From assembly GCA_036561525.1 (NCBI GenBank), contig DATBPD010000100.1:2164-66163 (forward strand): a DNA stretch of 64,000 bases, written 5' to 3'. The stretch comes from Candidatus Dormiibacterota bacterium (GTDB taxonomy: Bacteria > Chloroflexota > Dormibacteria > Aeolococcales > Aeolococcaceae). Below the pieces are notes generated by a model. The model had not been told where the DNA came from. It searched no databases and saw only the letters and a program-made list of their open reading frames with translations. Below, one piece after another: positions 14,465 to 15,232 of the stretch. Position numbers and translations under genes: made by a program. Each line of letters opens with the position of its first letter. Position 1 is the stretch's first letter.

Positions 14465-15181
14465 ATGGCCAGGACAAGACGCAGCAGAGGCGGCGCGAGC
14501 AAAGCCGTCAGCCGCACTGTGAAACGGGTGAGCGCAACCGCTCGCCGCCGCGCCAACACTGGTGGTGGTGATCTATTGAAGGCAGTGCAGGGACTGGTGA
14601 AGGCCTTGCCACTCAACGAGCTCGAGAAGCGACTCGCGGGACTTGAGAAGAGCGTGTCCCGTCTCGAGGGCGAGATCCGCAAGGCAGCCCGCCGTGTCAC
14701 CGGCGGCACGGCCAAGCGCAGGACCACACGCAAGGCCGCCGGGGCCAAGCGCAGGACAGTCCGTCGCAAGACGGCCGCCAAGCGCACCACCGCCCGGAAG
14801 GCAACCGCCAAGCGCGCCACCAAGCGCACCGCCAAGCGCACCACCGCCCGGAAGACGACCGCGCGTCGCAAGCCGGCAGCCAAGCGCACCACGGCGCGCA
14901 AGTCGACCGCCAAGCGCACCACCGCGCGCAAGCGGACCGCCACCCGCAAGGCCACAACCCGTCGGAAGCCAGCCGCCAAGCGCGCCACCGCACGCAAGAC
15001 GGCCGCCAAGCGCACCACCGCACGCAAGCCGGCTGCCAAGCGCGCCACGGCACGGAAGACGACCGCCAAGCGCGCCACCGCACGCAAGCCCGCCGCCAAG
15101 CGCGTCGGCGCACGGCGTGGCGCCCGCAAGGTCGCGTCGGCACCAGCGGCCGCAGCTCCAGCCACAGCGGCAAGCAGCTGA
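14465..15181 (+). CDS. Histone H1-like Lys/Arg/Ala/Thr-rich repeat protein with N-terminal coiled coil
   Basis: Strong RBS; about 8 copies of AKR[TA]TARK; heptad segment LNELEKRLAGLEKSVSRLEGEIRK. Confidence 0.85.
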   Translation: MARTRRSRGGASKAVSRTVKRVSATARRRANTGGGDLLKAVQGLVKALPLNELEKRLAGLEKSVSRLEGEIRKAARRVTGGTAKRRTTRKAAGAKRRTVRRKTAAKRTTARKATAKRATKRTAKRTTARKTTARRKPAAKRTTARKSTAKRTTARKRTATRKATTRRKPAAKRATARKTAAKRTTARKPAAKRATARKTTAKRATARKPAAKRVGARRGARKVASAPAAAAPATAASS

Positions 15182-15195
15182 CCTCGTAGCCATCG

Positions 15196-15232
15196 GAGAG
15201 GCCTCGCCATCGTGGCGGGGCCTCTCTTTGGT
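15196..15232. terminator. Intrinsic, probably bidirectional terminator
   Basis: gagaggcctcgcca-tcg-tggcggggcctctc followed by tttggttt, between convergent genes. Confidence 0.8.

Follow-up and report, generated by a model that had tools for sequence, protein, structure and literature searches.

Bacterial proteins in which an oligomerising head is joined to a histone H1-like tail are recurrent (PhaF, PhaM, AlgP, MLDS and Hc2), and proteins of this type link the organisation of the chromosome with storage bodies or with condensation during development. In PhaF of Pseudomonas putida, a zipper oligomerises the protein and is followed by disordered H1/AlgP-like basic repeats that bind DNA, and then by a non-basic Pro/Ala end comprising residues 226–261 (PMC3574117). 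MLDS of Rhodococcus jostii RHA1 carries a basic C-terminal DNA-binding tail, and the transcription factor linked to it is sequestered on the storage body (PMC5504291). Here we describe a gene for a protein of comparable layout in a 64,000-nucleotide stretch of DNA from Candidatus Dormiibacterota bacterium (assembly GCA_036561525.1, contig DATBPD010000100.1), referred to below as the window, to which coordinates refer unless another locus is named. The open reading frame (ORF) at 14465–15181 on the plus strand encodes a 238-residue protein with a calculated isoelectric point (pI) of ~12, rich in Ala (24%), Arg (21%), Thr (16%) and Lys (14%). There is, in our judgement, about an even chance that this protein is a polycation, oligomerised through its zipper, that binds DNA non-specifically, thereby bridging or compacting the nucleoid, and that in its ancestral state was under repression by a PhaR-like sensor of storage.

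The reading frame is maintained by purifying selection. Over residues 34–78, the ratio of non-synonymous to synonymous substitution rates (dN/dS) is 0.02–0.10 within the genus, at dS values of 0.4–2, and third positions vary in 43 of the 45 codons, compared with 19–24 at first and second positions. These values rule out a spurious ORF arising from GC-rich repeats. Long ORFs are also present on the opposite strand over the high-GC repeats and are regarded as by-products of these repeats, because the plus-strand frame is the selected one. The gene is flanked by a divergent gdh (glutamate dehydrogenase) on one side and a convergent ltaE (threonine aldolase) on the other, and is therefore monocistronic.

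The protein is composed of four parts, encoded, as are the features described further below unless stated otherwise, on the plus strand. At the N-terminus is a basic arm (residues 1–35, 14465–14569) with a net charge of +11, in which an amphipathic helix is predicted at residues ~10–28 and M1, R3, R6, G10, V15, T18, V19, R21, A26 and R28 are conserved. Following the arm is a conserved head core (residues 36–78, 14570–14698), delineated by alignment, AlphaFold2 modelling and dN/dS, and comprising a short amphipathic helix (residues 36–47), a kink at L48–P49, where the Leu-Pro pair is invariant, and a four-heptad leucine zipper (residues 50–78). Invariant in the core are L37, A40, V41, L44, A47, L48, P49, E52, L53, E54, R56, L57, G59, L60, E61, V64 and A74. 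The hydrophobic residues of the zipper (positions 50, 53, 57, 60, 64, 67, 71, 74 and 78) follow a perfect 3-4 heptad pattern, and the PDB matches of the head profile are only designed or GCN4 coiled coils. AlphaFold2 predicts helices at residues 11–47 and 50–79, separated by the L48–P49 kink, and a disordered tail; the zipper has a predicted local distance difference test (pLDDT) score of 79–91, and the models have a predicted template modelling (pTM) score of 0.24–0.33. Modelled alone, the head yields three helices with no compact fold (pTM 0.33), which would fit a module that needs partners.

The bulk of the protein is a disordered basic tail (residues 79–225, ~147 residues, 14699–15139; net charge +62), identified from composition, AlphaFold2 and Tandem Repeats Finder, with 62 Lys and Arg residues and no Asp or Glu. 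Tandem Repeats Finder detects a 30-nucleotide period repeated 7.7 times between 14867 and 15104 (score 254). At the protein level there are ~8 clean copies of the decamer xxAKR[TA]TARK, or ~12–14 when degenerate five-residue half-units are counted, and the underlying unit is the pentapeptide A-[KR]-[KR]-x-T, in which x is mostly Thr or Ala. The chain ends in a neutral Ala/Pro cap, APAAAAPATAASS (residues 226–238, 15140–15181 with the stop codon), recognised by composition and by comparison of orthologues. An earlier note on this DNA had described an extremely basic 238-residue protein with an amphipathic segment, a leucine-zipper-like coiled coil, about eight copies of a ten-residue unit and a PhaF-like architecture. 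The description holds in each of these respects: the frame, composition and pI agree with it, the heptads, the AlphaFold2 models and the 30-nucleotide period support the predicted elements, and the succession of zipper, tail and cap parallels that of PhaF (PMC3574117). The cap, which the note did not mention, adds a further conserved module.

Among the tails of ~50 distinct orthologues, length ranges from 57 to 216 residues and net charge from +18 to +89, and the repeat units vary (AKRTT, ARKTT, ARRKTT, AKRST and even TRATG). Kept throughout are the absence of acidic residues, a high share of Arg, a Ser/Thr content of 8–38%, and Ala. Nearly all orthologues have a non-basic Ala/Pro/Thr end extending 16–18 residues past the last Lys or Arg, after a junction similar to RVGARRGARK. 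Free variation of length and unit, combined with constant charge, is as expected of an electrostatic, sequence-independent binder, and the conserved Ser and Thr residues would be compatible with phospho-switches at Thr. In three assemblies (L017, L030 and L031) the tail goes out of frame part-way, most likely owing to assembly or consensus errors in repetitive DNA rather than to real frameshifts. Elsewhere in the window's genome, a stop-to-stop frame within a ribosomal-protein cluster (G000:C60:30079-31819) has a Lys/Ala/Pro/Arg-rich end, …AAARKPAGRAPAKPAAARKPVPRKP…, suggestive of a ribosomal protein extended at its C-terminus by an H1-like stretch.

Matches of the protein to Hc2 and H1-like families are confined to the tail. 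The Hc2 model PF07382 scores 39.9 bits against a cut-off of 40 and covers residues 81–233 alone, and the same restriction to the tail applies to NF038052 (Hc2; 51.1 bits, cut-off 135) and NF038053 (Burkholderia H1-like/AlgP-type; 31.7 bits, cut-off 80). Because all of these matches cover only the tail, they are compositional and do not reflect descent, and the Hc2 and H1-like resemblance pointed out previously does not extend to a family match. Neither the protein nor any of 14 heads matched the phasin models PF05597 and TIGR01837, even at E ≤ 10; a Pfam scan of the protein detected neither the globular winged-helix domain of H1 (PF00538, at E ≤ 1) nor the HU fold (PF00216). Membership in the Hc2, H1, HU, PhaF or AlgP-like families is ruled out by these cut-offs and missing domains. 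A basic leucine zipper (bZIP)-like binder was also rejected, as the basic arm is not continuous with the zipper helix, with G33–G35 and the L48–P49 kink intervening. Over the zipper (residues 47–74), all 14 heads give a sub-threshold match to DUF1192 (PF06698; 13.5 bits against 25.5, best E 0.0047) with the pattern L-P/S-x-x-E-L-x-x-R-I-x-x-L-E; DUF1192 proteins differ in being ~60 residues long and tail-less.

A word-indexed search with the head retrieved 20 relatives of 133–271 residues, all of them unnamed, and an exhaustive search with a head-only profile, a check that the earlier note had called for, retrieved 40 of 1.84 billion representative proteins at E ≤ 1e-3. A basic arm, a helix, an [AI]-[LI]-P motif, a zipper and an R/T/A/K tail are preserved in all of them, the most distant included. 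By these comparisons, the head defines a previously unnamed family. Within the GTDB family of the window, 111 of 117 genomes carry it, as do 30 of the 31 of high quality, and the sole high-quality genome missed by the head search has a divergent copy at the same site. A broader profile detected it in 52 of 53 genomes of the family, with essentially no occurrence among ~148 genomes from elsewhere in the class. The gene belongs to the core of one GTDB family, where it is lineage-specific, single-copy and nearly universal. Several family genomes contain a second, diverged copy; the one in G164 (L013:1480-2226, plus strand) has an acidic end and lies just downstream of a GGDEF-EAL gene.

If the protein compacts the nucleoid, it would do so as a non-enzymatic, self-associating polycation, for which we infer DNA binding, oligomeric state, bridging and regulation alike. 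Its tail would bind to the DNA phosphate backbone irrespective of sequence, in the manner of the tails of PhaF, AlgP, Hc2, HupB and MLDS. Two to four chains would be joined by the zipper, so that each particle would carry several tails and be able to bridge or compact DNA. The protein would act as a nucleoid-associated protein alongside HU: a separate HU gene is present once in each of the 31 genomes tested, which rules out replacement of HU, and the 238-residue protein would therefore add to HU. Such compaction might, as the earlier note suggested, serve dormancy.

Several points weigh against this assignment. The presence of HU everywhere leaves no gap among nucleoid proteins that would need filling; a polycationic tail would be no less prone to bind RNA or polyphosphate (polyP) than DNA; and the strongly invariant head (ELEKRLxGLEK) hints at a specific partner in addition to self-association. 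Codon usage speaks against abundance at the very high level that is usual for major nucleoid proteins: relative to the ribosomal-protein and elongation-factor genes of the same genome, the codon adaptation index (CAI) of the gene is 0.41, which among 1,627 likely genes is the 1.8th percentile, with the tail alone at the 17th percentile and the head lowest, and its G+C content at third codon positions is 0.81, against a median of 0.854. The earlier description of the gene as highly expressed thus finds no support in codon usage, with the caveat that slow growers may be under little translational selection. A reading of the tail in terms of AT-hooks was rejected: the core motif RGRP occurs in two genera only, where ~0.75 occurrences are expected by chance, and is no commoner than chance. 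The alternatives considered below are not mutually exclusive with nucleoid compaction.

Upstream of the gene in some relatives is a gene for a regulator of the PhaR type. One metagenomic relative has, divergently upstream, a gene for a 133-residue protein with the PhaR DNA-binding domain PF07879. A PF07879 search of 31 family genomes located the regulator in nine of them, across five of 15 genera, and by coordinates the PhaR-like gene divergently adjoins the H1-tailed gene in all nine carriers, including the genome with the divergent copy. The regulator scores 66–88 bits with PF07879 (cut-off 25) and 70 bits with the equivalog model TIGR01848, under its cut-off of 109. Its C-terminus resembles the zipper end of the PhaF/PhaI phasins and not PHB_acc (PF05597 29.3 bits, cut-off 28.8; TIGR01837 matched in four of five members). 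In one relative (G083), the gene order is that of the window with the regulator added (gdh, PhaR-like gene, H1-tailed gene and ltaE), from which it follows that the window's genus has lost the regulator.

This adjacency lends independent genomic support to a granule-type circuit, and with it to the alternative that the protein is a granule-to-nucleoid tether similar to PhaF, PhaM or MLDS. Its head would dock on an inclusion, its tail would hold the inclusion on the chromosome, and the PhaR-like neighbour would be a granule-titrated repressor of the gene. We consider this explanation possible but doubtful. It draws further support from the phasin-like C-terminus of the regulator, from the arrangement of zipper, basic repeats and neutral cap, which equals that of PhaF, and from the lipid-droplet precedent of MLDS and its regulator MLDSR (PMC5504291), but the head core is only ~45 residues long and contains no detectable phasin domain. 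Homology between the head zipper and the C-terminus of the regulator was rejected as not significant (hhalign probability 3%), and the window's genus has dropped the regulator, yet its gene and promoter are unchanged.

Storage enzymes bear on the same question. No match to polyhydroxyalkanoate (PHA) synthase (PF07167, TIGR01836-like) was found in the window's genome (84% complete) or genus; signatures of this enzyme occur in three of the 15 family genera, leaving 12 without it, and in few genomes of the class. A bifunctional wax ester synthase/diacylglycerol acyltransferase (WS/DGAT; PF03007, E 1.5e-72) is encoded in the window's genome (G000:C66:844-1650) and in 22 of 28 family genomes; this enzyme is common in the sister family f3 and in f4 and absent from f52, where no PhaR-like match was seen among the genomes listed. 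Storage of neutral lipids is probable in these bacteria, given that WS/DGAT is present in the genome and widespread in the class. Should a granule take part, lipid droplets would be a better candidate than PHA, and the inclusion held by a tether would most plausibly be a droplet of wax esters or triacylglycerols (TAG). Tethering accommodates less readily that the gene persists without PHA synthase or WS/DGAT in genera g4 and g5 and in part of g126, and that f3 and f4 have WS/DGAT without the window-type head. Phyletic coupling of the gene with either enzyme was rejected, as neither tracks it, and its retention in genomes with neither clearly points to a function that is also exerted in their absence. 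The granule tethering proposed in the earlier note gains support from the PhaR-like adjacency and the PhaF-like layout, but the protein shows no phasin domain, and no PHA synthase was found in this genome or in most of the family.

The PhaR-like gene is almost universal in f3, and at 14 of 14 fetched PhaR-like loci (L074–L087) it has a divergent neighbour of 172–239 residues, consisting of a basic N-terminus, a ~95-residue helical head, a T/R/K/A/S tail and a non-basic or acidic end; in an example pair, L076:890-1429 (minus strand) divergently adjoins L076:1477-1983 (plus strand). These loci also count in favour of tethering. The f3 neighbour holds the same position as the window's gene and has a different head: hhalign showed no relationship between the two heads, and a single pairwise BLASTP comparison gave 35% identity over 69 residues (E 3e-4). 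Two unrelated-looking heads occur in this slot in two families. On either view of the heads, the association between a PhaR-like regulator and a helical-headed protein with an H1-type tail is old in the class. A more specific proposal, which we regard as unlikely, is that the two genes constitute an ancestral Dormibacteria module in which a PhaR-type repressor, acting as sensor, and an H1-tailed protein would couple lipid droplets or another inclusion to the nucleoid; inclusions of this kind are suggested because wax-ester/TAG synthases are present in the genomes and PHA synthase is mostly absent.

Comparative genomics shows that the gene was ancestrally paired, divergently, with a PhaR-like repressor, which for a nucleoid-compacting polycation would once have tied the protein level to the carbon-storage state. 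With the repressor lost in the window's genus, expression would now rest on the promoter and the 5′ untranslated region (UTR) alone. In the window, the gdh frame (12901–14334, minus strand) is open for 477 codons; in relatives the start lies ~57 codons later, near 14163, so that the true spacer between gdh and the gene is ~300 nucleotides. This spacer is the site that holds the PhaR-like gene in relatives. A gene for a GGDEF cyclase lies two genes away from that of the 238-residue protein.

The promoter is exceptionally conserved. A −35 box, TTGACA (14338–14343), exact in its consensus by direct reading, is followed by an invariant CATGCTATG (14361–14369), identified by alignment of upstream regions, within which CATGCT is the likely −10 box. 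CATGCT begins 17 nucleotides past the −35 box and has A at position 2 and T at position 6, and is unlike TATAAT; a promoter scan found no consensus sigma-70 site upstream of the gene. Of the consensus promoter proposed earlier, the −35 box is therefore confirmed and the −10 box is not. Of 49 distinct orthologous upstream regions, 46 contain the exact combination TTGACA-N17-CATGCTATG, with a spacer that is always 17 nucleotides, and its conservation spans genera with saturated synonymous sites. As it occurs only once in the window's genome, a regulon signal was ruled out and the promoter is gene-specific. The sequence TGTCACAAA is present twice, at 14317–14325 (~13 nucleotides upstream of the −35 box) and in the leader at 14401–14409, flanking the promoter. 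The upstream copy is found in the window's own genus only; the two could be an operator pair or due to chance.

Ten nucleotides ahead of the ATG is the Shine-Dalgarno sequence AAGGAGG (14448–14454), and in 48 of 49 orthologous regions GGAGG precedes the start codon by 5–12 nucleotides. The convergent stop codons of the gene and ltaE enclose an intrinsic terminator (15195–15237), formed by a hairpin with a 15-bp stem (15195–15227) and a T-rich run, TTTGGTTT. Together with the orientations of the flanking genes, these elements bear out the monocistron, strong ribosome-binding site and terminator that had been described.

The leader of ~95 nucleotides (14370–14464) is conserved and structured. 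Its second hairpin, AUGGUC ... GACCAU (14421–14443), lies just 5′ of the ribosome-binding site and is established by covariation, with compensatory changes in six of six pairs, 94% of cells paired and a covariation score reached by none of 500 shuffles; it is deleted in one genus (g138). Hairpin 1, GGCGGGAGG ... CCUCCUGUC (14378–14404), predicted by RNAalifold, is less well supported (88% of cells paired and one compensatory pair). Its 3′ arm holds a near-invariant CCUGUC (14399–14404), which is complementary to GGCCAGG (14467–14473), beginning at the G of the AUG, and the two segments may form a helix that masks the start site and competes with hairpin 1. Covariation cannot choose between these pairings of CCUGUC, as no change is seen on either side. 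All 25 orthologues compared have AGG or AGA as codon 3, whereas these codons make up ~6% of Arg codons in the genome, which indicates a constraint at the RNA level at the start of the gene. The leader could be an undescribed cis-regulatory RNA.

An RNA- or ribosome-associated polycation, acting as an RNA chaperone, a hibernation-type factor or a condensate scaffold and perhaps autoregulating through its 5′ UTR, would account for the conserved structured leader with its covarying hairpins, the invariable choice of codon 3 and a tail in which abundant Arg is combined with Ser/Thr. We consider such a role very unlikely: the gene shows no linkage to ribosomal or RNA-metabolism genes, the protein has no RNA-binding domain, the leader matched no known RNA family in Rfam, and the UTR structure fits ordinary translational control equally well. 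The charge of the tail, with no acidic residue, would also suit an AlgP-like organiser of polyP granules, the tail binding polyP condensates embedded in the nucleoid and affecting their spacing. AlgP, itself H1-like-tailed, localises to polyP granules and spaces them (PMC9239181), and reliance on polyP is plausible for a starvation-adapted lineage. The AlgP-type model NF038053, however, scores far under its cut-off, no link to ppk or ppx turned up (no search was aimed at these genes), and the PhaR-like neighbour suggests carbon rather than phosphate storage; we hold this role to be highly improbable.

New in this system is a head family with an Arg/Thr-rich pentapeptide tail, in an uncultured, starvation-adapted soil lineage, that is kept in nearly every genome, with an exceptionally rigid promoter and an ancestral link to a PhaR-type regulator. 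The protein offers a concrete, easily expressed candidate for the organisation of nucleoid and reserves in Dormibacteria, and makes a case for testing PhaR-like sensors outside PHA metabolism. Interest in it would rise if the PhaR-like pairing proved to be an inclusion-sensing module in a lineage without PHA. Such a module would extend the logic of PhaR and the phasins beyond PHA and provide a handle on how dormancy specialists organise their reserves and chromosome.

Of the described systems, PhaF shares with the 238-residue protein the order of zipper, basic repeats and non-basic end (PMC3574117) and a genomic link to a PHA-type regulator. The two differ in that the long amphipathic PHA-binding helix of PhaF (residues 13–105) is missing from the 238-residue protein, consistent with the absence of a PF05597 match; in the repeat, which is Arg/Thr-rich (A-[KR]-[KR]-x-T) here and Lys/Ala/Pro-rich and AlgP-like in PhaF; and in the extra basic N-terminal arm and the host without PHA synthase. 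MLDS, compared by architecture and regulatory logic (PMC5504291), is likewise a small protein with a basic tail and a dedicated regulator, and the window's genome has a WS/DGAT neutral-lipid synthase; MLDSR is of the XRE type and encoded in the same operon, whereas the PhaR-type regulator of the relatives is divergent and absent from the window's genome. Hc2 and the Burkholderia H1-like proteins, the only database matches, have similar Lys/Arg/Ala-rich pentamer-type repeats but no zipper head. AlgP of Pseudomonas aeruginosa, which resides on polyanionic nucleoid granules (PMC9239181), also has an H1-like repeat tail on a non-histone head, and differs in both head and repeat unit. Judged from its sequence, the 238-residue protein would work in the manner of the PhaF/MLDS/AlgP class and belong to none of those families.

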